A stretch of 64,000 nucleotides of DNA from Thermodesulfobacteriota bacterium (GTDB lineage: Bacteria; Desulfobacterota; Binatia; UBA9968; JAJDTQ01), in contig OZ220712.1 of the NCBI GenBank assembly GCA_965116735.1, positions 181,907 through 245,906 of the forward strand. Direction: 5' to 3'. The notes below the pieces were generated by a model, which searched no databases, had not been told where the DNA came from, and saw only the letters and a list, made by a program, of their open reading frames with translations. Numbering within the stretch: position 1 is the first letter of the stretch; each line of letters starts with the position of its first letter. The translations under genes were made by a program, and so were the position numbers. Positions 5,901 to 33,148 of this stretch are shown here, in pieces.

Positions 5901-6034
5901 GGATGGCAGCTTAAGTATTGATCCGTCAAGAAACTGCACTCGTGATTTGAGCAAGTTCCATGCCATTCGTCGACCCGGGGGAATGACCAAGTACGGCGAA
6001 ACCCGACCAGAACACGACACATCTTTGAATAGTC

Positions 6035-6062
6035 TTGACCAAAATACGATGGTATGGATAAT
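6035..6062 (+). promoter_or_regulatory. possible sigma-70 promoter (TTGACC-16-GATAAT)
   Basis: Hexamers read directly in the AT-rich spacer. The -10 overlaps the first ATG of ORF 6054, which favours the ATG at 6072 as the start. Confidence 0.3.
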
Positions 6063-6071
6063 AGTCAAGCT

Positions 6072-7280
6072 ATGGACACGGAATCGCGCGTCTACGACGC
6101 CCTGCTGGCCGAGCACTTGTCCGCCAACCGGCAGATGGCGTTTGTCAGCGGTCCGCGGCAGGTAGGTAAGACCACGACTTGTCGGCGTCATGCCGACAAC
6201 TATTGCAACTGGGACAATCTCGATGACAGGGAGGCCGTGCTGGCGGGTCCGGCTAGCTTGGCCGCCGCCATGGGAGCGGATCGGCTCTCCACCACCGCTC
6301 CTGTAGCGCTCTTCGACGAACTTCACAAGTTCCCGAACTGGAAGCCCTTCCTGAAGGGTCTGTTCGACACATACGCTGACCGCCTTCGCATCATCGTCAC
6401 CGGCAGCAGCCGCCTGGACGTTTACCGCCGGGGCGGCGATAGCCTGATGGGTCGCTACTTCTCCTATCGGATGCATCCGTTTTCCGTGGCCGAAACGGTG
6501 AGCCGGGAACTTCCCGAAGCGGATAGGGTCGTCCGGTCGCCGGACAGGATCGAAGCTGACGATTTCGAAGCGTTGTGGAGTCACGGAGGGTATCCTGAGC
6601 CGTACCTTAGACGCGATAACCGGTTCAGCCGAAGGTGGCGGTCGCTACGCTACGCACAACTCGTCCGGGAAGACATACGCGACCTCACCCAGGTTCAGCA
6701 GATCGACCAGTTGGAGGTGCTCGTCCGCCGTTTGAGCCGCCAGTCGGGGCGTCAACTCGTGTATGGCAACCTCGCCAGGGAGGTGCGGGTGTCAGCGGAT
6801 ACCATCCGTCGGTGGGTGGCCGCTTTGTGCGATTTCCACCTGGGATTCCTGGTCAGGCCGTGGTTCCGGAACGTCTCGCGATCTCTGCGCAAGGAGCCCA
6901 AGTGGTACCTGAGGGACTGGGCGGACATCGAGGACGACGGAGAGAAGTCCGAGACCTTCGTCGCGTGTCACCTCCTCAAGGCGGTCGACGGCTGGAACGA
7001 CATGGGGCTCGGCCGGTTCGAGCTCGGCTACCTGCGCGACCGGCAAAAGCGGGAAGTCGATTTCGTGGTGGCCCGTGAAGGTCAGCCTTGGTTCCTGGTG
7101 GAGGTGAAACACCGGGATGAATCCATGAGTCGGTCTCTTAGGTACTTCCAGGATCAGGTTGACGCGCCGTTTGCGTTTCAGGTGGTCGTCGATGCCGACT
7201 TCGTTGACGCCGATTGCTTCGCGAAGCCGAGACCGCCGCTGGTAGTCCCGGCCCGAACCTTCTTGTCGCAGCTCTTATGA
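6072..7280 (+). CDS. AAA-family ATPase with DUF4143 domain (AAA_14/DUF4143 type)
   Basis: Walker A GPRQVGKTT and the usual architecture. Sits in a patch that is AT-richer than its neighbours. The start could also be 6054. Confidence 0.8.
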   Translation: MDTESRVYDALLAEHLSANRQMAFVSGPRQVGKTTTCRRHADNYCNWDNLDDREAVLAGPASLAAAMGADRLSTTAPVALFDELHKFPNWKPFLKGLFDTYADRLRIIVTGSSRLDVYRRGGDSLMGRYFSYRMHPFSVAETVSRELPEADRVVRSPDRIEADDFEALWSHGGYPEPYLRRDNRFSRRWRSLRYAQLVREDIRDLTQVQQIDQLEVLVRRLSRQSGRQLVYGNLAREVRVSADTIRRWVAALCDFHLGFLVRPWFRNVSRSLRKEPKWYLRDWADIEDDGEKSETFVACHLLKAVDGWNDMGLGRFELGYLRDRQKREVDFVVAREGQPWFLVEVKHRDESMSRSLRYFQDQVDAPFAFQVVVDADFVDADCFAKPRPPLVVPARTFLSQLL

Positions 7281-7360
7281 CGCTCGTCATGCCGTTGACA
7301 ACTTAAACTCCCCTTGGGTAAGGTCTCGCAGGTAAACCACGCAGTGTGATGGAGGGCTTT

Positions 7361-7954
7361 ATGGGAAAGCTTGAGATGCTGGATCCGAGGGCCGACGTTC
7401 TCCTGGAGAATCATCCGCCCGTCCCTGGGCTGGATGATCTGGCCGGGAAAGTCGTGGGTATCCTCGACAACGGTCAGGCCAACTCGAGCCCGATGTTCGA
7501 GGAGCTGGCGCGGTTGATCGAGGAGCAGACGGGCGCGGCGGAAGTGCTGCTGCGGAAGAAGCCCAGCCACATGAACGCGGCGCCGGGGGAAATGATCGAG
7601 GAGATGCTGAGCCGGTGCGACGCGGTCGTCACCGGCCTGGGCGCTTGAGGGTCGTGCACGTCGTGGAGTGTCCACGACGCCATCGAGATCCAGAAGCGCG
7701 GCACCCCCACGGTGACCCTTTGCCAGACCATCTTCATGGAACTGGGCCGGAAGGAAGCGACGTTCTTCGGCATGCCCAAGCTGCCGCTGGTGCAGATCCC
7801 GCACCACCCGAGCGGCGGCGCGCGGCCCGGCGAGCACGCCGAGGACGCAAGGATCGCCATCGGGCCGGTTCGCGAGAACCTGACGGACGCCGACACCGGC
7901 GAGCGGGCGGCGGGATCGGGCGCCGCTGTTGCCGAAGCGCAGGCCGCGAAGTAG
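7361..7954 (+). CDS. UGSC-type (seleno)protein, in-frame TGA (Sec) at 7646..7648
   Basis: ORFs 7346..7648 and 7712..7954 share one frame and are separated only by one TGA. Read-through gives ..VVTGLGA-U-GSCTSWSVHDAIEIQKRG... GGAGGG RBS lies before the ATG at 7361, and a hairpin starts 10 nt after the TGA. Confidence 0.7.
7659..7679 (+). promoter_or_regulatory. SECIS-like stem-loop (9-bp stem, GUG loop)
   Basis: cgtcgtgga-gtg-tccacgacg is perfectly complementary and begins 10 nt downstream of the in-frame TGA. Confidence 0.5.
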
Positions 7955-8002
7955 GGCGCCTCACGCAAGCGCACCGTACGGCACGCGCCTGAACCTTCGC
8001 CC

Positions 8003-9094
8003 ATGGCCACCGACCCGTCACAGGTGAAGCTCGTCTCCGACGTCATCGAGTTGGAGGACTCGCTGGAGGCGGCCAACGACTGGTTCCTGGAGCGCCAGTT
8101 GAGCGACGGCCTGCCCATCGTTCCCCCTACCCGCGAGCGGGCGGAGCGCATGCTCGCGGGCACCCACCGCGACCCCCAGGAGATCCTCGGCCAGGTACCG
8201 CCCAAGTGGGCGCCGGCCACCGTCGAGAAGATCGCCGTCAACTGCGTGATGGCGGGATGCCTGCCGGAATACCTGCCGGTGGTCCTGGCCGCCGTGGAAG
8301 GCATCATGGAGCCCCGCTTCAACCTCTACGGGGTCCAGGCCACCACCGGGTACGCGGGTCCGGCGCTGCTGGTGAACGGCCCGGTCCGGAACGAGATCGG
8401 AATCAACTGCGACGCCGGCGCGTTCGGCCCCGGCCACCGCGCCAATGCCACCATCGGCCGGGCCATCCGCCTGATCCTCATCACCATCGGCGGCGGCTAT
8501 CCCGGCGACACCGACCGCGCCACCTTCGGCTGGCCCGGCAAGTACAGCTTCTGCTTCGGCGAGAACGAGGAGAAGAGCCCCTGGGAGCCCTACCACGTGA
8601 GCCGCGGCTACAAGCCCGAGCAGAGCACCGTGACCGTGTGCGGCATCAACGGCTTCATCCCCATGCACACCGCCGGCAGCACCGGGCAGGAGGCGCTGTC
8701 GTCGCTGGCCGAGGTCATCGCCCTGCACCACGGCGGCAGCCACCTGGACGTGGGCAGCTTCGGCGGCGGCACGCCGCTGGTGGCCCTGTGCAGCGAGGAC
8801 GCCGAGATCCTCGCGCGGGACGGCATCACGCGGGCGGACGTCCGCGAGTACCTGTGGGAGCATTCCACCATCACCTTCGCCAGCATCCCGGACCGCCGCA
8901 AGGGGACCAAGAGCGATGAAGAGCTGCTGCGGGAGTCTCCCAACGTCACCGCGGACGGGATCGTGCACTTGGCCACCCGGCCCGACGACATCATGGTGAT
9001 CGTGACCGGCGGCAAGCACCGGCACTGCGTCCTGCTGCCCATGTGGACAGGGCGCAACACCCTGGCCGTGACCAAGCCGATACGGACGGCCTGA
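8003..9094 (+). CDS. conserved-looking hypothetical protein, Cys-rich (363 aa)
   Basis: Long ORF with normal codon character, 48 nt downstream of the UGSC gene. Motifs DGLPIVPPT, VNCVMAGC, GINCDAGAFGPGHRANATIGRA. I do not recognise a family. Confidence 0.65.
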   Translation: MATDPSQVKLVSDVIELEDSLEAANDWFLERQLSDGLPIVPPTRERAERMLAGTHRDPQEILGQVPPKWAPATVEKIAVNCVMAGCLPEYLPVVLAAVEGIMEPRFNLYGVQATTGYAGPALLVNGPVRNEIGINCDAGAFGPGHRANATIGRAIRLILITIGGGYPGDTDRATFGWPGKYSFCFGENEEKSPWEPYHVSRGYKPEQSTVTVCGINGFIPMHTAGSTGQEALSSLAEVIALHHGGSHLDVGSFGGGTPLVALCSEDAEILARDGITRADVREYLWEHSTITFASIPDRRKGTKSDEELLRESPNVTADGIVHLATRPDDIMVIVTGGKHRHCVLLPMWTGRNTLAVTKPIRTA

Positions 9095-19708: not shown

Positions 19709-21817
19709 ATGGACTACATCATCGGCGTCGATATCGGCGGCACCTGCACGGACTGCGTCATCCTGGACGCCGACGGTAAGCTGACCATCGGGAAGGCGCT
19801 GTCGACGCCCCACGACTTTTCCCAGGGCGTCATCGATTCCCTCGCGGACGGAGCCGCGAATCTCGGGCTAGCCTCCGTGGACGACCTGCTCCGCTCGACC
19901 CGCCTCTTCTTCCATGCCTGCACCGTCGCCGACAACACTCTCATCACCCGCACCGGGGCGCGAACCGGGCTGGTGGCTACCGAGGGCTTCGCGGACAGCT
20001 TCCTGATGATGCGCGGCAATGTGACCCACGGCCTGACGGAGGCCGAGGCCTCGCACATCGCGGGCCTGGAAAAGCCGGAGCCGCTGGCGCCGCGGAGCCT
20101 GACCGGGGAGGTGCGGGGGCGCATCGACTACAAGGGATCGGTGCTGATCGAAGCCGACGAGGCGCAGATCGAGGAGGTGGTGGAGCGCCTCGCGGCCAAG
20201 GGGGTGGAGTCGGTGGCCGTGTGCCTGCTGTGGTCCATCGCCAACGACGCCCACGAGAAGGCGGTGGCCGAGGTGATCCGCCGCAAGCATCCCGAGATCC
20301 ATGTGAGCTGCTCGAGCGACGTTGCGCCGTTCCTGGGCGAGTACGAGCGCACCGCGACGACGATCTTCAACGCCTACATCGGCCCCCGGATCGCTTCGTA
20401 CCTGCGCAACCTTCAGCAAGGCCTCGCGGACCGGGGGCTTGCGAGCGATCCCCTGGTGATGCAGGCCTACGGCGGGATGCTGGGCATCGAAGCCGCCTCC
20501 CAACGGGCCATCGGCGCCCTGGAGTCCGGACCCGCAGCCGGGGTCGTGGGAAGCAGGTTCATCGGCGACCTCATCGACGAGCCCAACGTCCTGGCGGCGG
20601 ACATGGGCGGCACTACCTTCAAGGTCAGCCTGGTAAGGAACGGCGTCATCGAGCGGGACTACCAGCCGGTGTTCGAGCGCTACAGCATCCTGGCGCCCAA
20701 GATCTGGGTGGCCTCCATCGGCGCGGGTGGCGGCAGCATCGCCTGGATCGACCGCACTTCCGGCCTGCTCAAGGTCGGCCCCCAGGGGGCGGGCGCGGCC
20801 CCCGGCCCGGTGGCCTACGGCGTCGGCGGGAGCGAGCCGACGGTGTGCGACGCCGACGTGGCTCTCGGGTATCTGAACCCCGACTACTTTCTGGGGGGCC
20901 GTCTCGCACTCAGGAAGGAGGAGGCCGTGGCCGCCATCGAGGAGCGCATCGCCGGGCCGCTGGGGATGACCGTGACGGCGGCCGCCGGCGGCATCTTCCG
21001 GATTATCAACGCCCACATGAGCGATCTCATCCGCCGCTGCACGGTGGAGCGGGGGCAGGACCCGCGGGAGTTCACCATGGTGGCCATCGGCGGCTCCGCG
21101 CCCGCCCACGCCTCGCGCTGCGCACATCAGCTCGGCATGCGCAAGGTGGTCATTCCGCTGACGGCCTCGGTGCACGCGGCCACCGGTCTGATCTCCGCGG
21201 ACGTGACCTACGAGTACGGCATGTCCGACCACGTGGTGGCGCCGCTGGACCCGGTGCGGCTCAACGCCGGCTTCGACACGCTGCGCGCCCGCGCCGCCGC
21301 CGACCTCGCGAGCGCTGGTTTCCGGGACGGCGGCACCGAGATTCTGCGCAGCGTGGACATGCGCTACCGCTACCAGGTCAACGAGATCAACGTGCCGGTG
21401 CCGGGGCGGGAGCCGGTGGGGAGCGATGACCTGGAGCAGCTCTACGCCCGGTTCGACGATCTCTACGAGCAGTCCTACGGGAAGGGAGCCGGGTATCCGG
21501 AGGCGGGCAGGGAGATGCTGTCGTTGCGCGTCACGGCTGTCGGCAAGCTGGCCAGGCCGGCGGTCCACAGGAGCGAGGCCGGGCCGGGCGATGCCGCGTC
21601 GGCGCGCAAGGGAACGCGGGAGGCGTACTTCGAGGAACACGGAGACTTCGTCCCCACCGAGGTCTACGACTTCGAGGGCCTGTCCCCCGGCGCCGGGATC
21701 GCCGGCCCGGCCATCATCGAGACGCCGGTCACCACCATCGTCGTGAACCCCAACGACCGCGCGGAGATGGACGCGTTCCGCAACATCGTGATTTACGTAG
21801 GCCAAGGGTCGGGATAA
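19709..21817 (+). CDS. hydantoinase/oxoprolinase A-type subunit (acetone carboxylase beta-like)
   Basis: MDYIIGVDIGGTCTDCV.. 702 aa. Confidence 0.9.
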   Translation: MDYIIGVDIGGTCTDCVILDADGKLTIGKALSTPHDFSQGVIDSLADGAANLGLASVDDLLRSTRLFFHACTVADNTLITRTGARTGLVATEGFADSFLMMRGNVTHGLTEAEASHIAGLEKPEPLAPRSLTGEVRGRIDYKGSVLIEADEAQIEEVVERLAAKGVESVAVCLLWSIANDAHEKAVAEVIRRKHPEIHVSCSSDVAPFLGEYERTATTIFNAYIGPRIASYLRNLQQGLADRGLASDPLVMQAYGGMLGIEAASQRAIGALESGPAAGVVGSRFIGDLIDEPNVLAADMGGTTFKVSLVRNGVIERDYQPVFERYSILAPKIWVASIGAGGGSIAWIDRTSGLLKVGPQGAGAAPGPVAYGVGGSEPTVCDADVALGYLNPDYFLGGRLALRKEEAVAAIEERIAGPLGMTVTAAAGGIFRIINAHMSDLIRRCTVERGQDPREFTMVAIGGSAPAHASRCAHQLGMRKVVIPLTASVHAATGLISADVTYEYGMSDHVVAPLDPVRLNAGFDTLRARAAADLASAGFRDGGTEILRSVDMRYRYQVNEINVPVPGREPVGSDDLEQLYARFDDLYEQSYGKGAGYPEAGREMLSLRVTAVGKLARPAVHRSEAGPGDAASARKGTREAYFEEHGDFVPTEVYDFEGLSPGAGIAGPAIIETPVTTIVVNPNDRAEMDAFRNIVIYVGQGSG

Positions 21818-21818
21818 T

Positions 21819-21846
21819 GTAGGGGCGACCGGTGGTCGCCCCTGTC
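21819..21846. repeat. REP family B
   Basis: gtaggggcgaccggtggtcgcccctgtc, immediately after the stop at 21817. Confidence 0.8.
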
Positions 21847-21883
21847 GGGGTCCGCCGCGGTGCAGAGTCCCTCGGAGAACAGC

Positions 21884-23710
21884 ATGACCACCACCACCGG
21901 CAACGGCAGCGTCGACCCCATCACCCTGGAGATCCTGTCGCACAGGCTGTACCAGATCGCCCGGGAGATGGGGATCACCCTGGAGCGGGTCGGCGGCTCG
22001 GTGAACACAACGCAGCAGCACGACTACATGGCGTCGCTCTACACCGCGGACGGCGACGTGCTATCGGCCGGCGAGTCCCTGGGGCAACACGTGGCTTGCG
22101 CCGGCTTCGCGGTGAAGAAGATCATCGAGCGGTTCGAGGACGGCGAGGGCATCGACCCCGACGACGTCTTCCTGCTGAACGACCCGTACGTGGCGGCCAT
22201 CCACCAGTCGGACGTCTACGTCATCGCCCCGATTCACTACGAGGGCCGCCGCATCGCCTGGAGCGCCACCTTCGTCCACGTGATGGACATCGGCGCCATG
22301 TCGCCTGGCGGCAACTCGCCCGGGGCCACGGAGATTTGCCACGAGGGAGTGCGGGTGCCGGGTCTCAAGCTGGTGGAACGCGGCCAGCTTCGCCGGGACG
22401 TCTTCGACACGATCCTCAACATGACGCGGCAGCCCGTGATGGTGGGGCTGGACCTCAAGTGCGAGATCGCCGCCAACAACGTCGCCAAGGCGAGGATACA
22501 GGAAATCGCCGAGCAGTACGGCCCGGATCTCCTGGAGCGGGTGTCGGCGGAGATCATCCGTTACACGGAGTCGGTGCTGCGGCAACGGATCGGCGAGTTC
22601 GCCGACGGCTCCTGGAGCGGCACGGCCCTCATCCAGGGCGACCAGGCCTGGAAGATGCACCTCACCCTGAACAAGCGCGACGACCGCCTGATCTTCGACT
22701 TCGCCGGCAGCGATCCCCAGGCCACGACCGGCATCAACATGCCGTACCACGCCACCTTTGGGACCTGCTTCGCCGCGGTCGTCGAGACCCTCGGCTTCGA
22801 CATCCCCCGGAACCACGGCGCCTTCGGGCCCATCGAGGTCATCGCGCCGCCGGGCACGGTGGTCAATGCCCGGTACCCGGCTCCGGTGTCCCTCAACACC
22901 ACCTCGGGTGCGGCCACCTGCCGCTACCTGGCTCCCGCGGTGTTGATGCAGATGCTGGCCACCAGCGAGAGCTGGCGGAACGAGGTGATGGCTTCCAACG
23001 CCGGCCACCGTTTCGCCCGCCACGCCGGCGTCAACCAGCACGGCCGCTACTACGTGTCGAGCCTTTCCGAGGGGGCCATCGACGGCTACGGCGCCCGCGC
23101 CGACAAGGACGGGGTGGACTCCGGCGGCCGCGGCTGGCACTCGTGCCAGAACGTCGAGTGGGTGGAGCAGAACTTTCCCGTCCTCTACCTGTTCCGCCGC
23201 CACCTGAAGGACGGAGCCGGAGCGGGGCGCTACCGCGGCGGCGCCGGTGCGGAGACCGCGCTCACGGTGCACGACGCCCCGGAAGGCGGCATCAAGGGCG
23301 TGGCGCTGGGAGTAGCCGGGCTCAGGAACTCGGGACAGGGAGTTTTCGGCGGCCTGTCCGCCGCCCCCAGCCTGCTGGTCCTGAAGGAAGGGACCTCCGT
23401 CTGGGACACGATCCACGACAACCGCCACCCGGTGGACGCGGAGGCCATGGGCGGCACGTCGGACATGCTCCCGTATTGCGACTTCGACCTGCGCACCGAT
23501 GACGTCCTGTACATGCGCATGGCCAGCGGCGGAGGCTACGGCGATCCCCTGGACCGGGACCCCGAGGCGGTGCTGCGGGACGTGGTCAACGGCATCGTTT
23601 CGGCGGAGGCCGCCCGGGACATCTACGGCGTCGCCCTGGATCAACCGGCAATGCGGGTGGACGCGGCCGCCACCGAGGAGCTTCGCGCCCGGATTCGGGA
23701 ACGGCGGTAG
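21884..23710 (+). CDS. hydantoinase B/oxoprolinase-type subunit (acetone carboxylase alpha-like)
   Basis: ..DPITLEILSHRLYQIAREMG.. typical HyuB N-terminus. 608 aa. Confidence 0.9.
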   Translation: MTTTTGNGSVDPITLEILSHRLYQIAREMGITLERVGGSVNTTQQHDYMASLYTADGDVLSAGESLGQHVACAGFAVKKIIERFEDGEGIDPDDVFLLNDPYVAAIHQSDVYVIAPIHYEGRRIAWSATFVHVMDIGAMSPGGNSPGATEICHEGVRVPGLKLVERGQLRRDVFDTILNMTRQPVMVGLDLKCEIAANNVAKARIQEIAEQYGPDLLERVSAEIIRYTESVLRQRIGEFADGSWSGTALIQGDQAWKMHLTLNKRDDRLIFDFAGSDPQATTGINMPYHATFGTCFAAVVETLGFDIPRNHGAFGPIEVIAPPGTVVNARYPAPVSLNTTSGAATCRYLAPAVLMQMLATSESWRNEVMASNAGHRFARHAGVNQHGRYYVSSLSEGAIDGYGARADKDGVDSGGRGWHSCQNVEWVEQNFPVLYLFRRHLKDGAGAGRYRGGAGAETALTVHDAPEGGIKGVALGVAGLRNSGQGVFGGLSAAPSLLVLKEGTSVWDTIHDNRHPVDAEAMGGTSDMLPYCDFDLRTDDVLYMRMASGGGYGDPLDRDPEAVLRDVVNGIVSAEAARDIYGVALDQPAMRVDAAATEELRARIRERR

Positions 23711-23724
23711 GCAAGGTGGCAAGG

Positions 23725-23747
23725 GTAGGGGCGACCGGCGGTCGCCC
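23725..23747. repeat. REP family B
   Basis: gtaggggcgaccggcggtcgccc. Confidence 0.8.
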
Positions 23748-23788
23748 ACGGGTCTACCGCGTGGCCGGCGCCACAAGAGGATGCGAAC

Positions 23789-24040
23789 ATGAAGCGACCG
23801 TTCAGAGAGAACCTGGAGTTGGATACAAACGTGGACCCGCCCCAGGTCGTATGCGCCCGATGCGGCTTTTCGTTCGGCGGAGAAGCCGAATGGAAGGAAC
23901 GCAGCCACCGGAAGCTGTCGCCTCCCACAGCGGCCGGTCCCCTCATGACGGACCTGGAAGGCCAGTTCCTCCTTCAACAGCTCTTCTGCCCCTCCTGCAA
24001 GACGCTGCTCGATTCCGAGATCGTGGAAGCGGCCGGCTGA
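23789..24040 (+). CDS. acetone carboxylase gamma-subunit-like Zn-ribbon protein (83 aa)
   Basis: CARCG..F....EWK ... FCPSCKTLLDSE pattern, in the gene order A-type, B-type, gamma. AGAGGA RBS. Confidence 0.65.
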   Translation: MKRPFRENLELDTNVDPPQVVCARCGFSFGGEAEWKERSHRKLSPPTAAGPLMTDLEGQFLLQQLFCPSCKTLLDSEIVEAAG

Positions 24041-24042
24041 CG

Positions 24043-24768
24043 ATGAGAATTCTGCTCTTCGTGGTCGCGGTGATCGCGACTGGAAATCACGTTGCCTCCG
24101 CCGCCGACTACACTCCCGGGCGGAGCTTCGACTATTTCAGCAAGACGACCTACAAGGACAGGGACTGGAACGTCACGTTCTACGAGAACTGCGAGCTTCC
24201 CGAATACTCCTCGACGGAGTGGATCAGGGAGCAAGGCGAGAGGTTCCTGCGCTTCACCCTGAAGAACGGGCAGGTAGGGGGATGCCGCAGCGACAACCGC
24301 CGCAGGCACCGGGCGCCGTACTGGGAACGGGCGGAAATCAAGCAGACGACCACCCTGGAGAAGGACCACGACTATTCACTGACCTACAGGGTCAGGTTCC
24401 TGAAGGGATTCGACAACGATCGGGAGGACTTCCTGCAAGTGCACCAGTCGGTCAGCGGTTGCCGGGTCGGCCCTCTGGTCATGCTGAAATTCAGCAGCGG
24501 GCGCCTTCTGGGCGCCACGACGCCCCTTTCTGTGGGGAAAATTCTCGGGAAGTGGGTGAACGTCAGGTTCGACTTCAACGCTGCGAGATCCTACGACCTG
24601 TATGTCGACGGCAAGACGATCATTGACAACAAGATCATTCGCCGAAAAAACCCGTGCGGCGAGCCGCATCTGAAGATCGGGATCTATCGCCCGGGGGATT
24701 CCGAGGCAACCGGTGACAGGCTGTCCGTGATGGACGTCGACAAGTTGAGGCTGATCGACAGGAAGTAG
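24043..24768 (+). CDS. secreted concanavalin-like protein, possibly polysaccharide-lyase-like
   Basis: Signal peptide MRILLFVVAVIATGNHVASA. AT-richer than its neighbours. The family call is only a weak recollection (..RAPYWERAEI..). Confidence 0.5.
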   Translation: MRILLFVVAVIATGNHVASAADYTPGRSFDYFSKTTYKDRDWNVTFYENCELPEYSSTEWIREQGERFLRFTLKNGQVGGCRSDNRRRHRAPYWERAEIKQTTTLEKDHDYSLTYRVRFLKGFDNDREDFLQVHQSVSGCRVGPLVMLKFSSGRLLGATTPLSVGKILGKWVNVRFDFNAARSYDLYVDGKTIIDNKIIRRKNPCGEPHLKIGIYRPGDSEATGDRLSVMDVDKLRLIDRK

Positions 24769-24855
24769 GTTCGAAACGGTCGTCGAGGCTCGACCAGCGC
24801 GCTTCCGGATCCAGCCCGGGCTCGTTGCGAAGGCCGCGTTGGCCCTTCGCCGACG

Positions 24856-25899
24856 ATGGCTTATAGTGTTCCGATGATAGGCACACCGCTCTCCGTTCTT
24901 GACCTGTCGCCGATCGTCGAGGGCGGCGACGCTCGGCAGGCGTTGCTCAATACCATCGACCTGGCGCGCCATGCCGACGCATGGGGCTACACGCGCTACT
25001 GGCTGGCCGAGCATCACAACATGGCCGGTATCGCCAGTGCCGCGACGGCCGTGGTGGTCGGCCATGTCGCCCAGGCCACGGCATCCATCCGGGTCGGCGC
25101 CGGCGGCGTCATGCTGTCCAACCATGCCCCGCTCATCATCGCCGAACAGTTCGGCACCCTGGCGGCCCTTTATCCGGGCCGGATCGATCTGGGTATAGGG
25201 CGCGCACCCGGCACCGACCGGTACACCGAACGCGCCCTGCGCCGCACCCTCGCCGGCAACCTCGATGACTTCCCGCAAGACGTGCTGGAGTTGCAACACT
25301 ATTTCAAGGAACCGGCACCGAATCAGTTCGTGCACGCCGTGCCGGGTGCCGGCCTGAACGTGCCGCTGTGGATCCTGGGGTCCAGCCTCTACGGCGCCCA
25401 GCTCGCCGCCGCCCTTGGGCTCCCGTATGCCTTTGCCTCGCACTTCGCGCCGGCGGCCCTGATGCAGGCCATCGCCGTCTACCGCCAACGCTTCGAACCG
25501 TCGGCACAGCTCGACAAGCCCTATGTCATGGTAGGCATGACCGTCGTCGCCGCCGATACCGATGACGAAGCCCACTTCCTCAGAACCTCGATCCTGCGGT
25601 CCTTCGTCAACCGGCGCCGCGGCGGCATGCCGGGTAAGCTGCCTCCGCCCGCCGCCGACTTTGAAGATCAAGTGGCTCCGCACGAGCGTGCGATGATCGC
25701 GGAGGCCCTGTCCTGCTCCGCCGTCGGCGCGCCCGATACGGTCGAACGCGAGATTGCCGCCTTCGTTGAGCGCACCGGTGCCGACGAGGTCATGATCACC
25801 GCGAACATCCATGATCACGCCAAGCGGCTGCGGTCCTTCGAACTGGTGGCCGGGATGATGGGTGCCAACCCGGAGCTTCAGCGAAGCGCCGTGCGCTAG
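24856..25899 (+). CDS. LLM-class (luciferase-like) flavin-dependent oxidoreductase
   Basis: ..LSVLDLSPI.. and ..[18 protein letters not shown].. motifs. The start could also be 24874. Confidence 0.9.
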
Positions 25900-25933
25900 T
25901 CGCAGGCGCCGTGGCGACGGTGTCCAGTCTAAC

Positions 25934-26953
25934 CTATCCGCTCTCTTCCCGATCCAGCCCCGTCATCTCCAGCATCGGCCGGTCGGTCACCGAGAACAGG
26001 ATCGCGGGCTCGTTCTCCGAGGCGTTCCGGAAGTGGTGCCAGCGCCACGGCGGCAGGGTGAAGGCGTCGTTGATCTCCCATTCCAACTCGATGGGCTCGT
26101 CCCGGTCGACAACGGTGGCGCCCTGTCCCTGCACCACGTGGTAGTGGGTGGTGCCCATGTGGCGGTGGGGCACGGTGGCCCGGCCCGGCAGCAGCATCTG
26201 GATGTGGCAGGTCATGGTGAGGAAGGTATGGCCGCCGGTGACCGGGTTCTTGTATTCCAGCAGCACGCCGTCGTGGGGGTCGCCGCCGCCTGCCCCCGCG
26301 ACCTCCTGCAGCGCCTCCAAGGTCTCGTCCCACTTGTAGTGGTAGGGGACGCCGGCCCCTTCGAACCGCACCTCCCGCTCGCGTATCGGGCCGTAGAGGC
26401 GGCGCGAGGCGCCGGACTTCCGGGTCAGTGGCTGCTGCATGCCCTCCGACCACTCTTCCCGGAATTGCGATGCGCCGAGGAAGTTCACCACCCCGACGTC
26501 GAGGGCGTCGATCCAGATGATGGGTTCCTTGGAATCGTTGACGTGGTCGTGCCACACCCAGTTGGGCTGGATCAGCAGGTCGCCGGGCTGCATGGTCATG
26601 GGCTCGCCGTTGGAGGTGGTGTAGGCGCCGCCGCCTTGGACCACGAAGCGTAGCGCCGTGTTGGTGTGCCGGTGCGCCGGCGCGGCCTCTCCCGGCATCA
26701 CGATCTGGTAACCCATGATGATGGTGCGGCTCGCGGTCTCCAGGCCGACGTTCCGGCGGAAGGCCTCCGGCCCGATGCTGATCACGTCCGCCGCCTGCAT
26801 CAGCGCCGGGTAGACCTCATCCCAGCGCCACAGCCGGGGCTCGACCGTGTGGTGCTCGCGCTGGCGCTGCCAGTAGCCCACCAGCCCGAGGCCGGCGAAT
26901 TTCTCGTGCAGTTCGTCACGCCTTTTCTGATGATCCGTTGCCCCTTTGGCCAT
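25934..26953 (-). CDS. gentisate 1,2-dioxygenase-like bicupin dioxygenase (paralogue 1)
   Basis: Two cupin domains, each with HRH...WH.H motifs. AGAGGA RBS before MAKGATD. Confidence 0.85.
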   Translation of the reverse strand: MAKGATDHQKRRDELHEKFAGLGLVGYWQRQREHHTVEPRLWRWDEVYPALMQAADVISIGPEAFRRNVGLETASRTIIMGYQIVMPGEAAPAHRHTNTALRFVVQGGGAYTTSNGEPMTMQPGDLLIQPNWVWHDHVNDSKEPIIWIDALDVGVVNFLGASQFREEWSEGMQQPLTRKSGASRRLYGPIREREVRFEGAGVPYHYKWDETLEALQEVAGAGGGDPHDGVLLEYKNPVTGGHTFLTMTCHIQMLLPGRATVPHRHMGTTHYHVVQGQGATVVDRDEPIELEWEINDAFTLPPWRWHHFRNASENEPAILFSVTDRPMLEMTGLDREESG

Positions 26954-27002
26954 GTTCGTGTTCCTCTTTGTAACCGGCCCGACCTGCGTGCCGGCGCGCA
27001 AC

Positions 27003-27028
27003 AGGGGCGGGTTCGAAACCCGCCCTAC
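27003..27028. repeat. REP family A
   Basis: aggggcgggttcgaaacccgccctac. Confidence 0.8.
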
Positions 27029-27059
27029 GTGTTGACGCCCGAAACGAACCCGCCGCGCG

Positions 27060-28010
27060 TTACGCCGCGGCTTCCTCCGGCAGCGGATAGTTCTCGCACA
27101 GCTTGCGCCACCGTTGCGCGATGGCCTTGGCCTCGGCCCGGGTCTCGTCGGTGGTCACCCGGAAAGGCGGCCTGCCGGGCCCGGCGTAGCAGTAGCCCGC
27201 CTCGTTGATGGCGATCTTGCTCTCCACCGGGTCGGTCTCGCTCGGGTCACGCCCGCCGACCCGCGCCATGGCCATGCAGATCTCCTTGACCTCGTCCCAC
27301 CGTCCGTCGCGCCCGGCCCGGTAGGCCCGCACCACCGGCGACGGCCCCATCCACGCGTTGATGGACCAGCACCCGGCGGCCCCTAACATCATGTACGGGT
27401 ACATCTGGTTCTGGTTGGTCATGACGCTGATCCGCCCCCGGACGATGTCCATGAGCTGCATGAACTGCATGGGGGTCCGGTGGCTGTCCTTCATGCCGAC
27501 GATGTTGGGGCTCGTGACGAGCTCCTTGAACGCCGACACCGGGATGTGGATGTGGTGGTTGCGCGGGTTGTGGTAGATGAAGATGCCCAGCTCGGGGTGC
27601 TCGTCGGCAAGGTCGAAGTAGAACTGTACGGCGTTGGCGACGCTAGACTTGAAGTAGAACGGAACCCCCACCAGTACTGCGTCGGCGCCGGCCTTGGCGG
27701 CATACTCCATCTTCAGCAGCACCTCCCGCGTGTGCAGGCTGGTGCAGCCGATGACCACCGGTATGCGCCTGTCCACCGTGGCGACGGTGGCGTCCGCCAG
27801 GGTCGTGAACTCCTCCCACAACAGGGTATGACACTCGCCGAACGTGCCGGTGGTGGCGATGACGCCGATGCCGTCGCGCACCGCCTGGTCCACGCTGCGC
27901 TCGAGCTCTGGAACGTTGACCGTGTTCGTGGCGCGCGGAGAGTTGGCGTCCTCGGTTGCGAAGGACGGCATCATGGCCATCACGCCGCGGATGTCACTGG
28001 CTTGGATCAT
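27060..28010 (-). CDS. DapA/NAL-superfamily class I aldolase, atypical long type (possible hydratase-aldolase)
   Basis: ..GTFGECHTLLWEEF.. and ..NIVGMKDSH.. (putative Schiff-base Lys). Close paralogue of 34456..35415. Confidence 0.8.
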   Translation of the reverse strand: MIQASDIRGVMAMMPSFATEDANSPRATNTVNVPELERSVDQAVRDGIGVIATTGTFGECHTLLWEEFTTLADATVATVDRRIPVVIGCTSLHTREVLLKMEYAAKAGADAVLVGVPFYFKSSVANAVQFYFDLADEHPELGIFIYHNPRNHHIHIPVSAFKELVTSPNIVGMKDSHRTPMQFMQLMDIVRGRISVMTNQNQMYPYMMLGAAGCWSINAWMGPSPVVRAYRAGRDGRWDEVKEICMAMARVGGRDPSETDPVESKIAINEAGYCYAGPGRPPFRVTTDETRAEAKAIAQRWRKLCENYPLPEEAAA

Positions 28011-28259
28011 GGCTTCTTCCTCTCTTCGGACGGTGGGCTTCGGACGGCTTGGGGTTGGCGTTCGCTCGTGTGGAAAGGCGCGGCCGTCCTGATCGCGCGC
28101 CACGCTATCAAGTCGCCATACGGGTGTCAATGCACTTGTCGGCCAGGGCCCGGCCGACTCGCCCCGGAGCCGCGTTGACAGGTCTTCCGGAGCCGATGTA
28201 TAGGCCGGGTGTGTGAACTTCGCCGGCGGGAAAACATCGCGAGCCGGGAGGCGGATGTT

Positions 28260-29594
28260 ATGCGCAAGTTCCTGAGATGCGGATACCTGTTCGACGGCTT
28301 GAGCGACGACCTCAACGCCGATCAGACCGTCGTCGTCGAGGACGGCTTGATCGGCTACGTGGGACCGACGGCGGAGGCGCCGCCGGCCCGCGACGGCGAT
28401 GCGGTCATGGACCATTCCGGGGCGTGGGTGCTTCCCGGCCTGATCGATATCCACGTCCACCTGAGCTACGGGAACGCCCAGGCCAACGAGGACGTGGACA
28501 TGTTCGCGCCGGCCGAATACCGTGCGTTGCGCGGCATGCACGCGGCGAGACAGGTCCTCAATGCCGGCTACACGTCGCTGGCCGATCCCGCCTCCACCTA
28601 CCGGGTAGCGGCGGCGGTGCGCGACGCCATCCATGCCGGGATGTTCCAGGGGCCGCGGATCACCTGCGCGGGGCGCCAGGTGACGGCGCGGCAGGGGCTG
28701 GGCGATTGGTACCCCACGTGGATAGGCGTGCCCGAGAGCTCCGTCGGCGTGCTGGTGCGAAGCCTCGACGAGGCCGTCGAGGAGATACGCTCCCAGGTCA
28801 AGGACCGCATGGACATCGTCAAGTTCGCCGTGGACGGGCTACAGCGGAACGGCTCCGGCGAGCTGATGTCAGGTTTCAACCAGGCGGAGATGAGCGCCAT
28901 GGTGGAGGAGTGCCACCGCCTCGGCGTCAAGACCATTGCCCACGCGCGCGGACGCGAAGCGGTGCTCTACTCGGCCCGGGCCGGCGTCGACGTCATCTTC
29001 CACGCCTTCGAGATGGACGACGAGGGCCTGGAGGAAGTCGTCAGGAACGGCTGCGTGCTCTCGCCCGCCCTGACCTTCCTGGTCAACACCGTCGAGTTTA
29101 CCCGCCCGGGCGACCCCTGCTACAAGTGGCGCCCCAACATGAACCGCAAGGACGTCGAGACCGCCGCCCGGATGCTGGTGAAGGCCAGGGAGGCGGGCGT
29201 TCCCTTCATGGTCGGGACCGACAGCGGATTCGCGGTCACGCCCTACGGTGAATGGCACGCGCGCGAGCTTGAGATCATGGTCGAGCACCTCGGCTTCACG
29301 CCGGCGGAAGCGCTCAAAGCGACAACCAGCGGCAACTCGGGACTGTTGCGGGAAGGCGATGCCGTCGGCCGTGTGGTCCCGGGCGCGCTGGCGGACCTGA
29401 CCGTGGTCGCCGAGAACCCGTTGGAGGACATCTCCTGCCTCCTGCGTTCAGAGAACATCACGCACGTCTATCTCGGCGGGGAGCCCGTCGACCTCGCTCC
29501 GATCCCGGAAGCCAAGCCGTACAGTTGGGAACAGTCGTTCCGCCAGTGGGGCGAGGTCTACACCCGCGAGCGGGTGGCGGAACTGGCACGCTGA
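28260..29594 (+). CDS. metal-dependent amidohydrolase (Amidohydro_1)
   Basis: ..LPGLIDIHVHL.. motif. GGGAGG RBS. Confidence 0.85.
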   Translation: MRKFLRCGYLFDGLSDDLNADQTVVVEDGLIGYVGPTAEAPPARDGDAVMDHSGAWVLPGLIDIHVHLSYGNAQANEDVDMFAPAEYRALRGMHAARQVLNAGYTSLADPASTYRVAAAVRDAIHAGMFQGPRITCAGRQVTARQGLGDWYPTWIGVPESSVGVLVRSLDEAVEEIRSQVKDRMDIVKFAVDGLQRNGSGELMSGFNQAEMSAMVEECHRLGVKTIAHARGREAVLYSARAGVDVIFHAFEMDDEGLEEVVRNGCVLSPALTFLVNTVEFTRPGDPCYKWRPNMNRKDVETAARMLVKAREAGVPFMVGTDSGFAVTPYGEWHARELEIMVEHLGFTPAEALKATTSGNSGLLREGDAVGRVVPGALADLTVVAENPLEDISCLLRSENITHVYLGGEPVDLAPIPEAKPYSWEQSFRQWGEVYTRERVAELAR

Positions 29595-30153: not shown

Positions 30154-30992
30154 CTCGAACGCAGGGTGTAGGTCACTTGCAGGCGCTCCGCACCGTAGTA
30201 CTCGCTCAGGAACTCTGCCTGGCTCTCATAGCCGCGGTTCGGAACCAGCCGCCCCTGGAATGACACCGGCAACGGATCGACATCGAAGGGGTAGGGTGTG
30301 ACCACGGCGTTCCATTCGTCCCGTATTGCGAACGACAGCACTGCGTCCTCGCGGCCGGGACGCACCGGCGCGGCGATGCCGCTCAGCGTGGGGCTCGGTC
30401 CGTTCTTTCGGTGGGTGGCGTTGAACGGATAGCGGTTGCAGATGAACTGGCCCATCTGGTCGTAGATCTCCATCAGCTTGAAATTCGTCCATAGCTGTTT
30501 GTCCGACACGCAGTCGCGATACTCCGACGACTCCTTCAGCCCCGCCATCAGCCCTTCGCGGTAGCCCTCCTGCTCCCGCAGGAACTCGCGGACCTCGGGA
30601 TGGACCGTATAGTCGGGCATGTAGGAGAGCAGTCCCTTCCCCTGGCTCAACAGGGCCTCGGCGTGCAGCGAGACGATATAACCCGCGTAGGCGTCCTGCT
30701 CCGCCAGCCGCGTGATGCCGTTCCGGTAGAATTCCAGCCATACGCCCATTCCCAGGTGCCGGATGCTGCCGATGTAGTCGGGCGGCAACCCCTCGTCGTT
30801 GAGCTGCGGCTTGATCTCCCAGTCCCACCACCCCGTATCGTGTTCCTGTGCCGCCAGCACCATCGCTGCGTAAGGCGAAGGCCGCGCGAACTCGTCGTTG
30901 CCCCAGTGCGCGGCCAGCCATCCGGTCACACGGGAGTGGTCCACCTGAAGAATCAGCAACAGGCGCTCGTCGTCATAGGGGCAAACCATCAT
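30150..30992 (-). CDS. DUF3891-family protein
   Basis: ..LQVDHSRVTGWLAAHWGNDEF.. N-terminal signature. Start taken at the MM at 30992. Confidence 0.7.
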   Translation of the reverse strand: MMVCPYDDERLLLILQVDHSRVTGWLAAHWGNDEFARPSPYAAMVLAAQEHDTGWWDWEIKPQLNDEGLPPDYIGSIRHLGMGVWLEFYRNGITRLAEQDAYAGYIVSLHAEALLSQGKGLLSYMPDYTVHPEVREFLREQEGYREGLMAGLKESSEYRDCVSDKQLWTNFKLMEIYDQMGQFICNRYPFNATHRKNGPSPTLSGIAAPVRPGREDAVLSFAIRDEWNAVVTPYPFDVDPLPVSFQGRLVPNRGYESQAEFLSEYYGAERLQVTYTLRSS

Positions 30993-31133
30993 GGCCGTAT
31001 CTCCTTCCTGGCTGCGGTCGGGCCTCCGTTCCGCCACCGCAAAGGCTGGGTCCAGATTGAAGAAATCTCCGTTGTCTTGTACCTTCGATGGAGGTCCACT
31101 ATCAACCTGCGGCATGGCGGCACAGAGGGATAC

Positions 31134-32030
31134 ATGGCCTTCATCGTAAGCGAGAAACTGTCAGCCTATGATCCAGACATCCAACTCGCCGAGTCGATGA
31201 TACTCCTCGGGGACGCCCAACATGTCCTCTCCCGTTTGCCTCGCGAATCTGTCCAGTGTGTGGTGACGTCGCCGCCCTACTGGGGTCTAAGGGACTACGA
31301 TATCAAGGATCAGATCGGACTGGAGCCGACGCTTCCACAGTTCGTCAACCGCCTCATCGCCGTTTTTCAAGAAGTCAAACGAGTTCTGAAACCGGGCGGG
31401 ACCTTCTGGTTGAACGTGGGGGATGGCTATACGAGCGGGAACCGGACTTGGCGTGCTCCTGACAAGAAGAACCGCGCCCGCGCAATGTCTGTGCGCCCTG
31501 AGACACCGGACGGTCTCAAGCCAAAGGATCTGATAGGGGTTCCATGGCGTCTCGCGCTGGCACTTCAGGAAGATGGCTGGTACCTGCGTAGTGACATCGT
31601 CTGGCACAAGCCCAACGCCATGCCCGAAAGCGTGAAGGATCGTCCGACACGAGCCCACGAGTACATTTTTCTATTCACCAGAAGCGAGCGCTACTACTAC
31701 GACCACGACGCAATCAAGGAGCCCGGTGGCAATGGCGCGCGCAAGCGCAATCGCCGGTCGGTATGGGATGTGAACACAGAGCCGACCAAGGATGCCCACT
31801 TCGCGACGTTTCCACCTAAACTGATCGAACCTTGTATCCTCGCGGGGAGCCGTCCCGGCGACTACGTGTTGGACCCATTCTTCGGTACCGGTACGGTGGG
31901 TCTTGTCTGCCAGAAGACCGGCAGGAAATACATCGGAATCGAGCTGCATCCGGAATACGTCGAACTGGCGGCGGGCCGTTTGTCGAAGCACGAACGGCAA
32001 CTTGAGCTCAACCTGAGAAGTCCGCGATGA
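31134..32030 (+). CDS. DNA methyltransferase, beta class (N4-cytosine or N6-adenine; the SPPY motif favours m4C)
   Basis: Motif IV TSPPYW comes before motif I DPFFGTGT. AGAGGGA RBS. Confidence 0.9.
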   Translation: MAFIVSEKLSAYDPDIQLAESMILLGDAQHVLSRLPRESVQCVVTSPPYWGLRDYDIKDQIGLEPTLPQFVNRLIAVFQEVKRVLKPGGTFWLNVGDGYTSGNRTWRAPDKKNRARAMSVRPETPDGLKPKDLIGVPWRLALALQEDGWYLRSDIVWHKPNAMPESVKDRPTRAHEYIFLFTRSERYYYDHDAIKEPGGNGARKRNRRSVWDVNTEPTKDAHFATFPPKLIEPCILAGSRPGDYVLDPFFGTGTVGLVCQKTGRKYIGIELHPEYVELAAGRLSKHERQLELNLRSPR

Positions 32031-33148
32031 TCAACCTACCCGGTCCCCAACTTCAGATCGATTTCTCCAGGTCACTGAAAACAATCCGAAACCAGATGTT
32101 GCAGCAGGCGCTCCTGGCAACCGTCCGGGATGCCTCTCTTGAAGAGATTGACGCGGAACTTCGCGAGTATGCGACCGAGGAGGATCTCAAGCGCCTTGCC
32201 GCGCATGGCCTCAGGGGCGAGCTTTCCGGTTCCTTGTCTGCTCCGCCGAAACCCCCGGCTTCTGGGCTACTACAGGCTGCTGCTCGGTTTCAGCCAGAAG
32301 GCATTCTACGGCAGCGGCGGTGGTGCGGGTCCATTCAAGAGCATGGAGGACAGCGGTACGTTGTCCACTCACCAGGACGAGTCCCTGCACGATCTCTGCG
32401 GGGCGATGGTTGGTTGTGCATCGCTGCTGCTGGAGGCGTTCGACGAGGGAGATATCGAGCCTCAATTCCTCGATGACCTGACGCTGCTGACCCTGGGACC
32501 GCAACTGCGAGGCGGGGCGAACGTCAGAAAGGGCAGCGCGGGGATCGTGGTGGTCTTCGACGCTATCCGGGAAGTGGTCAAGGGGAACATACGAAAACAG
32601 AGCAGCAGACGCCTCGACATAAACAACGCTTCAGGCCGGAAGGTGACGATACAGTTCGCCGCTGATCCCGACATCGTCATCATGGAGCAAATGACTCCCG
32701 AGGTGCACCGAAACGTCATTGCCATAGAGGTCAAATCAGGTACGGACTTCTCCAACATCCACAACCGGATCGGCGAGGCCGAGAAGAGTCACCAGAAGGC
32801 TAGTGTCCTGTCTCACGTAATTCTTTACTAAGATGCGCAGGATTTTTTGTTGTCGGCAAGGCGCGATGACGAGCAGTGGCGGGCACCACGCGAGGAAGAG
32901 CAACGCAGCCGACGACAAAAAAGACCAGCAGATTAGTAAAGAATTACGTGGGACAGGACACTAGACAGGCGGGCTTCGTCGAATGTTGGACCATCGTCAA
33001 TGTCGACAAGATCGACCTGGAGATGGCGCGTCAGGAGTCCCCGTCTACCAATCGCTTCTACCGTATCTCCGAACTCAAGCGAGGCGAAGGCGACGAGTTT
33101 CGCGACTTTCGTTCCCGCGTACTCTCGCTGGTGGGAATTCCGGGCTGA
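32027..33148 (+). pseudogene. type II restriction endonuclease (PD-(D/E)XK; possibly XcyI/Cfr9I-like), inactivated by a frameshift and a MITE insertion
   Basis: ATGA-coupled start at 32027 and a frame change near 32215..32226. ..DPDIVIM..IAIEVKSG.. catalytic motif. The ORF runs into MITE copy 3, and deleting MITE + one CTAG joins it in frame to the tail ending at 33148. Confidence 0.65.
32800..32964. mobile_element. MITE copy 3 (165 bp; variant termini)
   Basis: ctagtgtcctgtctcacgtaattctttactaa ... ttagtaaagaattacgtgggacaggacactag. The core is near-identical to copies 1 and 2. Confidence 0.85.

Follow-up and report, generated by a model that had tools for sequence, protein, structure and literature searches.

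UGSC proteins were described as a selenoprotein family in the Sargasso and Global Ocean Sampling (GOS) selenoproteomes of Zhang and Gladyshev (PMC2398784), where a thioredoxin (Trx)-like fold, a general redox role and a UGSC/Unknown_1 fusion are mentioned. The family was commoner in non-marine than in marine samples of the GOS survey, now has Pfam (PF24696) and NCBIfam (NF041046, 'UGSC family (seleno)protein') models, and is listed in a 2026 review among the selenoproteins with functions still largely uncharacterised (PMC13188914). We analysed a window of 64,000 nucleotides (the whole stretch, positions 181,907 to 245,906 of contig OZ220712.1, assembly GCA_965116735.1) from a Candidatus Binatia lineage, in which an earlier note, made from the letters alone, had proposed a UGSC-type selenoprotein gene split at an in-frame TGA, of a family reported from marine surveys. 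That proposal is supported, and its family assignment is upheld by a PF24696 match; the family is less obscure than that description implied, given its models and its non-marine prevalence. The Binatia locus is a new member of an already catalogued selenoprotein family, not a new kind of gene. We consider it very probable that a single gene at 7361..7954 (+) encodes a selenocysteine (Sec) protein of flavodoxin-like fold, which would form a two-component enzyme with the product of the adjoining gene at 8003..9094 (+).

The gene and its in-frame TGA

Gene calling had placed two open reading frames (ORFs) here, 7346..7648 and 7712..7954. Translating 7346..7954 confirms one gene split by the caller: the two ORFs share a frame, and the sole interruption is the TGA at 7646..7648 (+), in the context ..CDAVVTGLGA-*-GSCTSWSVHDAIEIQKRGTPTVTLCQTIF.. 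(in full, ..SRCDAVVTGLGA-*-GSCTSWSVHDAIEIQKRGTPTVTLCQTIF..). The TGA does open a U-G-S-C motif as had been read from the sequence, written TGA-GGG-TCG-TGC at 7646-7657, with the predicted Sec at codon 96 (U96) and, at 7655..7657 (+), a TGC codon for Cys99, the likely resolving Cys of a U-x-x-C pair. With U replaced by C, the 197-residue product matches PF24696 at 149.6 bits (E 1.2e-43; gathering cut-off 25) over profile positions 1-171 of 172, spanning the TGA, and NF041046 at 113.2 bits (E 9.9e-33) over profile positions 2-146 of 147. The gene was first taken to begin at 7346, where there is an alternative upstream GTG; the most probable start is ATG 7361 instead, because GGAGG at 7351..7355 (+), a likely ribosome-binding site judging from its sequence and 5 nt upstream of the ATG, precedes it and because homologues begin MA(K/T)LKMLDPR. 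From there the gene runs for 197 codons to a TAG stop.

Beyond the TGA the frame evolves as a coding sequence. Over the 63 codons that follow, comparison of the window with 29 clade members counts 184, 118 and 661 differences at first, second and third codon positions, a clear signature of purifying selection on protein; the corresponding counts over the 60 codons before the TGA are 376, 239 and 716. The 21 codons immediately past the TGA, proposed to be coding, are part of this stretch; the restart codon had been misread as ATG: codon 7712 is GTG, and the first in-frame ATG is at 7736. That the restart falls mid-domain holds good, since GTG 7712 lies inside the conserved strand ..TPTVTL... 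Gene boundaries aside, the TGA at 7646 is the only one in the window with a strong same-frame coding signal (GC content at third codon positions above 0.8) on both sides.

We scanned one genome per GTDB species with the close-clade alignment as query, which yielded at least 579 relatives, and analysed the best 80 loci. TGA stands at the homologous codon in all 80 (93 distinct copies), across Binatia, Burkholderiales, Chloroflexi, Rokubacteria and Tectomicrobia. Cys99 is Cys in 93/93 genomic copies, and G97, S98 and C99 are invariant in the family alignment; variant motifs (UGSCAS, UGACTS or UGGCTS) occur in four of the 80 loci. The ten closest loci are 88-97% identical, have the window's gene order in common and come from Candidatus Binatia metagenome-assembled genomes (MAGs), except L002, which is labelled uncultured Syntrophobacterales; this places the window in the Binatia lineage. 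Multiple copies occur: several genomes (L015, L018, L019, L025, L029, L056, L069, L071) hold 2-3 paralogous pairs of UGSC and its partner gene (described below), and a Chloroflexi MAG (L041:4202-9400, JACPQD010000044.1) carries three tandem Sec-containing fusions of the two, with TGA at 4202, 6271 and 7965.

Protein homologues fall into three groups: close ones that end at ..TGLGA, close ones from the Joint Genome Institute (JGI) with 'W' at the Sec site, and distant ones with CGSC. The last group has Cys in place of Sec and comes from haloarchaea, Acidimicrobiia and other lineages, including Salinigranum rubrum and an Acidimicrobiia MAG whose protein NCBI names 'UGSC family (seleno)protein'; its CGSC aligns exactly across the TGA, so the Cys homologues that the earlier note had suggested looking for do exist. 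Homologues without TGA have Cys at the Sec site, never Trp, and the 'W' of P0001, the closest clade member, reads TGA in its DNA. We observe the same rendering of the Sec TGA as Trp in P0001-P0004 (JGI, short contigs; compare L103:396-398), which probably stems from a TGA=Trp code chosen for the contig. Such JGI entries conceal selenoproteins as seemingly full-length proteins, and public gene callers in general routinely split or shorten UGSC genes, or render their TGA as Trp.

Could the TGA be a true stop, leaving a pseudogene, two small genes (95 aa, and 80 aa from GTG 7712) or a sequencing or assembly error? Gene callers do split the locus, many database entries end at ..TGLGA or begin past the TGA, and the window carries no Sec machinery. 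A sequencing or assembly error would not recur at one and the same codon in all 80 species-level genomes, however, and a stop would also have to be reconciled with coding-type substitutions downstream of it (the 184/118/661 pattern), with the position of GTG 7712 as a residue within a conserved strand, with full-length Cys-type homologues and with a Pfam match that crosses the TGA as one domain. We find this alternative scarcely credible. Comparative evidence shows that 7361..7954 is one gene, predicted to encode a UGSC-family selenoprotein, and the two annotated ORFs should be merged accordingly in the annotation.

The hairpin after the TGA

A hairpin of the bacterial SECIS (selenocysteine insertion sequence) type occupies 7659..7679 (+), starting 10 nt past the TGA. 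Its sequence, CGTCGTGGA / GTG / TCCACGACG, forms the perfect 9-bp stem (arms 7659-7667 and 7671-7679) and GUG apical loop (7668-7670) that had been described from the letters, with a conserved 7-bp core (7661-7667/7671-7677; UCGUGGA-GUG-UCCACGA) set within the codons for T-S-W-S-V-H-D. The bacterial SECIS (bSECIS) model of PMC13188914 specifies a 3-9 nt loop with G in its first two positions, a 4-16 bp stem, a distance of 16-37 nt from the UGA and a minimum free energy of -7.5 kcal/mol or lower. With a 3-nt loop of G then U, a 9-bp stem, a loop that starts 19 nt after the UGA and -13.5 kcal/mol for the hairpin alone, the element fits this model; a SECIS prediction on this stretch was one of the checks put forward in the earlier note. 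The window has about 20 sites with a perfect hairpin of 9 bp or more and a loop of 3-9 nt (6.75 hits in shuffles). By chance, a given TGA would thus be followed by one within about 20 nt in well under 1% of cases.

Conservation of the element extends to synonymous sites. Among the distinct genomic copies, which span several phyla, Ser+5 is TCG in 93/93 and Ser+7, the source of the loop U, is AGT in 93/93; Val+8 is GTC in 87/93 and His+9 is CAC in 89/93, with CAT, for which a G-U pair is still possible, in 3. Upstream of the hairpin, Gly+1 appears in all four codons and Ser+2 as TCG (49), TCC (27), TCA (7) or TCT (6). The RNAalifold consensus of 28 diverse copies is an 8-bp stem with a GUG loop, whose outermost pair, formed by the third positions of Thr+4 and Asp+10, covaries (GC 15, AU 4, GU 3, broken 6). 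In a divergent paralogue (L071:9333, GSCSSGSVLD) the stem is kept through a G-C to C-G swap and a G-U pair. In a Cys-type gene of an Acidimicrobiia MAG (L081:5286-5327), which encodes the same peptide with Cys for Sec, CGSCTSWSVHD, most of the stem is retained; AGC in place of AGT makes its loop GCG instead of GUG, and the element has the look of a SECIS relic that outlasted a Sec-to-Cys change. The frozen synonymous sites, together with the loss of the loop U in a Cys-type gene, therefore indicate an RNA-level constraint tied to the TGA. RNAfold also draws an extended lower stem on the window sequence; we did not count it in the element, as it is missing from the consensus of a shorter alignment, which covered only part of it.

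Several observations count against this account of the gene. The 64-kb window contains no selA, selB or selD (Pfam on about 40 ORFs; tblastn with E. coli SelA, SelB and SelD) and no tRNA-Sec, nor any tRNA gene at all, so that Sec decoding in this organism is inferred. The hairpin has no Rfam match, either at gathering thresholds or in a permissive scan of 7300-8000, which returned no SECIS or other meaningful RNA family. The NF041046 score of 113.2 bits also falls short of the NCBI equivalog cut-off of 125, under which P0001 likewise lies (100.6 bits); this cut-off is a naming threshold for one sub-clade, and bears on the use of the word 'equivalog' while leaving Pfam family membership untouched. 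Sec-insertion genes do occur beside UGSC elsewhere: a Limnohabitans sp. MAG (L077:1-7207, DAISKH010000090.1) has the order selA, selB, a Pyr_redox_2 gene, tRNA-Sec, TctC, UGSC (TGA at 5904) and partner, which places the pair about 2 kb from selA/selB, with tRNA-Sec in between, and thus in one cluster with the Sec-insertion genes.

A UGA read through without Sec, by near-cognate Trp or Cys insertion or under an alternative code, with the hairpin merely stimulating read-through, would sit well with the Trp that the JGI gene caller writes for the homologous TGA on short contigs and with a genome in which no Sec machinery is confirmed. Yet TGA serves as a normal stop in 17 of the 41 confident window genes, so the code of this genome is not TGA-sense in general; homologues that lack the TGA settle on Cys and never on Trp; the G-U of the apical loop and its spacing are typical of a SelB-binding SECIS; and selA, selB and tRNA-Sec adjoin the pair in L077. 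We regard such read-through as very improbable. Decoding of the UGA at codon 96 as Sec, directed by the embedded SECIS hairpin, is supported by comparative evidence across the family and is predicted on that basis for the Binatia gene.

The partner gene and the wider neighbourhood

The gene that follows, 8003..9094 (+), encodes an uncharacterised conserved protein of 363 aa that draws attention through its adjacency to, and fusion with, UGSC. It has no Pfam or NCBIfam match (DUF7387, at E 0.003, is below threshold). A homologue of this partner adjoins UGSC in 74 of the 80 loci, nearly always directly downstream and across five bacterial groups; no runner-up neighbour is found in more than 17. 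The pairing extends to Cys-type UGSC genes of Salinigranum rubrum, of a metagenomic lineage and of an Acidimicrobiia MAG with two copies, all of them adjoined by partner homologues of 34-45% identity. We also found in-frame fusions of Sec-type UGSC with the partner in 16 gene copies over 14 loci, extending 435-465 codons after the TGA; protein databases contain them solely as fragments of about 420 aa from after the TGA. Full-length Cys-type fusions are P0308, P0317, P0321, P0322, P0351, P0379, P0395 and P0411. The partner is probably the 'Unknown_1' of the GOS paper.

Other architectures attach different redox domains to the partner. In P0412 and P0424 an AhpC-TSA/Redoxin domain (with CATC in P0412) stands instead of the UGSC domain, and in P0372 the partner is fused to a Pyr_redox_2 flavoprotein domain, thioredoxin-reductase-like and with a CAVC motif. 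Proteins of about 710 aa such as P0284 carry two partner domains, one after the other. The partner family is large, with at least 6,470 clusters at 90% identity and at least 7,558 at 50% identity (E up to 0.001).

The AlphaFold2 model of the partner scores a predicted local distance difference test (pLDDT) of 91.4 and a predicted template modelling score (pTM) of 0.92, and Foldseek finds no convincing fold match for it in the PDB. Its best match is the alpha subunit of class I fumarate hydratase, at E 2e-4 with a template modelling score (TM) of only 0.24-0.28, ahead of Toblerone-fold amide hydrolases and MmgE/PrpD, likewise at low TM; we assign no fold from these. Searches of PDB sequences with the partner sequence and with its profile returned nothing below E 0.2. 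The conserved residues of the partner (D35, T43, N80, C86 in 104/105 copies, N125, N148, R153, C184 in 98/105, E187 and W194) look enzyme-like.

In the window, the pair is flanked by genes for an ADP-forming acyl-CoA synthetase, an enoyl-CoA hydratase, thiolase-like and MetE-like proteins, an AAA_14/DUF4143 ATPase, two acyl-CoA dehydrogenases and TctC and TctA transporter components. Elsewhere its neighbours include CoA-transferase III, MaoC dehydratases, MmgE/PrpD, Amidohydro_2 with a TPP enzyme, HpcH/HpaI aldolase and many TctC genes. These neighbours hint, loosely, at catabolism of carboxylic acids or acyl-CoA esters, and do not identify the substrate. As a variable insertion in surroundings that are otherwise syntenic, the AAA_14/DUF4143 gene (6054-7280, +), directly upstream of UGSC, is present in some close Binatia relatives (L003 and L005-L008) and absent from others (L001, L002 and L004).

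Further from the pair, the window has two catabolic stretches, 19709-29594 and 34456-55811, with genes for hydantoinase/oxoprolinase A and B, a luciferase-like monooxygenase, four bicupins, three DHDPS-like proteins, several amidohydrolases, two UbiD-family decarboxylases and several TctC/TctA components. What looks like a type II restriction-modification pair is formed by an N6_N4 DNA methylase gene (30600-32030, +) and, after it, a gene for an XcyI-family restriction endonuclease (32130-32831, +).

Predicted fold, proposed chemistry and comparison with known systems

We modelled the UGSC fold with AlphaFold2 on P0001, which is 66-68% identical to the window protein and has W at the Sec position. 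The model (pLDDT 87.7, pTM 0.84) is built from five consecutive beta-alpha units, with the Sec position between strand 88-92 and helix 97-112. Foldseek against the PDB matches it to generic flavodoxin-like domains at TM of about 0.45-0.53, and the 50 matches listed are flavodoxin-like, lumazine-synthase, FtsZ N-domain and similar; thioredoxin is not described for any of these 50. The UGSC profile against PDB sequences gave nothing below E 0.2. UGSC is thus predicted to adopt a flavodoxin-like alpha/beta fold, with U-G-S-C in the stretch that leads from strand 3 into the N-terminus of helix 3. The Trx-like fold proposed in 2008 (PMC2398784) finds no support in the five beta-alpha units or in the Foldseek list, both of which derive from a predicted model.

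That earlier survey's assumption, a stand-alone thioredoxin-like thiol oxidoreductase for which adjacency to the 363-aa gene would be meaningless, draws on the Trx-like fold and general redox role given in the GOS paper and agrees with the variability of the wider gene context. It has to contend with adjacency in 74 of 80 loci across phyla and also in Archaea, with repeated in-frame fusions, and with a predicted flavodoxin-like fold that has no thioredoxin among the 50 Foldseek matches listed. On this balance a stand-alone redoxin seems improbable.

The recurrent foreign NCBIfam matches of 32 UGSC members belong to the selenoprotein B family only: TIGR01917 (GrdB) in 19 (best E 2e-5), GrdF in 8, TIGR01918 in 8, GrdH in 3 and PrdB in 1. 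Aligning UGSC with the PrdB-like sequences of the GOS supplement, hhalign reports a probability of 76% and E 2.3e-5 over 119 columns, superposing the Sec/Cys columns and the following ..RG.PTV.. strand of the two. At E up to 1, PF07355 finds no match among these 32 members. UGSC would therefore be, at most, a remote homologue of the GrdB/PrdB 'protein B' selenoproteins and not a member of their family.

From adjacency, fusions and remote homology, UGSC and its partner are most likely the two components of a selenol/thiol oxidoreductase. UGSC would be the redox-active subunit, sometimes within a single chain, and the 8003..9094 protein the catalytic part. Sec96 and Cys99 would cycle between selenol/thiol and selenenylsulfide, and might either reduce a group on the partner, for which conserved Cys86 is a candidate, or attack a partner-bound substrate; the Se-S bond could then be re-reduced by a system of the thioredoxin-reductase type. 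The redoxin and Pyr_redox_2 fusions and the thioredoxin-reductase-like gene of L077 support such a thiol/selenol relay feeding the partner.

Some findings speak against this chemistry or narrow it. The kinship with GrdB and PrdB is built on sub-threshold scores; the context past the partner is variable, with neighbours unrelated to catabolism at one locus; the fusions P0341, P0370 and P0396 have a UGSC-like domain without either redox residue; and one fusion has Ala at partner position 86. The relay is therefore not universal in the family.

Within the partner-enzyme picture, the main rival is that UGSC is a catalytic subunit of the PrdB/GrdB type and not an electron-donating redoxin. Sec96 itself would then attack a substrate held by the partner, as PrdA holds D-proline, in a reductive cleavage of a C-N, C-S or C-O bond, with Cys99 resolving the selenoether to Se-S. 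In keeping with this idea, the Sec site, with the same UxxC motif, is the centre of the remote homology of UGSC to GrdB, GrdF, GrdH and PrdB; pairing with one specific larger subunit is obligate; and paralogues have expanded within catabolic gene clusters. Yet the partner resembles neither PrdA, GrdE nor any Pfam family, some fusions lack both redox residues, and in some proteins an AhpC-TSA/Redoxin CxxC domain replaces UGSC; a generic Redoxin in that place is more readily explained if the domain is an exchangeable electron donor than if it is a nucleophile specific to the substrate. We judge a PrdB/GrdB-type subunit possible, though unlikely, and favour the selenol/thiol oxidoreductase outlined above.

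A broader proposal is that UGSC and its partner of about 350 residues constitute a very widespread two-component selenoenzyme of haloarchaea and of aerobic or facultative bacteria. Its Sec subunit, GrdB/PrdB-like and recycled by a system of the thioredoxin-reductase type, would drive the reduction of a substrate of the carboxylic-acid type, and the partner would have a new catalytic fold. We offer this tentatively, as a reading with a fair amount in its favour on which we would not yet lean. The function of the UGSC family becomes directly testable through the near-obligatory pairing or fusion with a Pfam-less partner, the redoxin and thioredoxin-reductase-like fusions and the remote GrdB/PrdB link.

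How, then, does the locus compare with described systems? GrdB, GrdF, GrdH and PrdB (PF07355, TIGR01917/TIGR01918) resemble UGSC in placing UxxC after a beta-strand at a helix N-terminus, followed by ..G.PTV.. in a second strand, and the weak sequence similarity that recurs between the families is centred on Sec. The selenoprotein B proteins also work with a second, larger, substrate-specific subunit, as UGSC appears to work with a larger partner. In contrast, UGSC has about 180 aa where they have 240-430, its partner bears no relation to PrdA and GrdE, which are pyruvoyl proenzymes, and its hosts are aerobic or facultative lineages and haloarchaea instead of Stickland fermenters.

Thioredoxin-fold redoxins (Trx, TlpA/Redoxin, AhpC-TSA) have a two-residue redox motif at a helix N-terminus in common with UGSC, a Redoxin domain takes the place of UGSC in P0412 and P0424, and both are linked to thioredoxin-reductase-like flavoproteins (P0372, L077). 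They differ from UGSC in that its predicted topology is of five flavodoxin-like beta-alpha units and it matches no Trx-family hidden Markov model.

The likeness to the UGSC family itself (PF24696, NF041046 and the selenoproteomes of PMC2398784) comprises the full-length domain, the position of the motif, a TGA paired with Cys in homologues, a SECIS hairpin directly after it and fusion or pairing with an uncharacterised domain. Nothing essential sets the window copy apart: it belongs to a Candidatus Binatia lineage, scores 113 against the 125 bits of the NCBI cut-off, and its fold is predicted here as flavodoxin-like against the Trx-like one assumed in 2008. At the RNA level, the element is akin to the E. 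coli fdhF-type bacterial SECIS, being a hairpin within the coding region, immediately 3' of the UGA, that carries G-U in its small apical loop at a spacing within 16-37 nt; unlike that type, the loop of the UGSC element is limited to 3 nt, and a bulged U is not seen. The UGSC SECIS is family-specific and near invariant across phyla, which is unusual, as bacterial SECIS elements generally vary between genes (PMC13188914).

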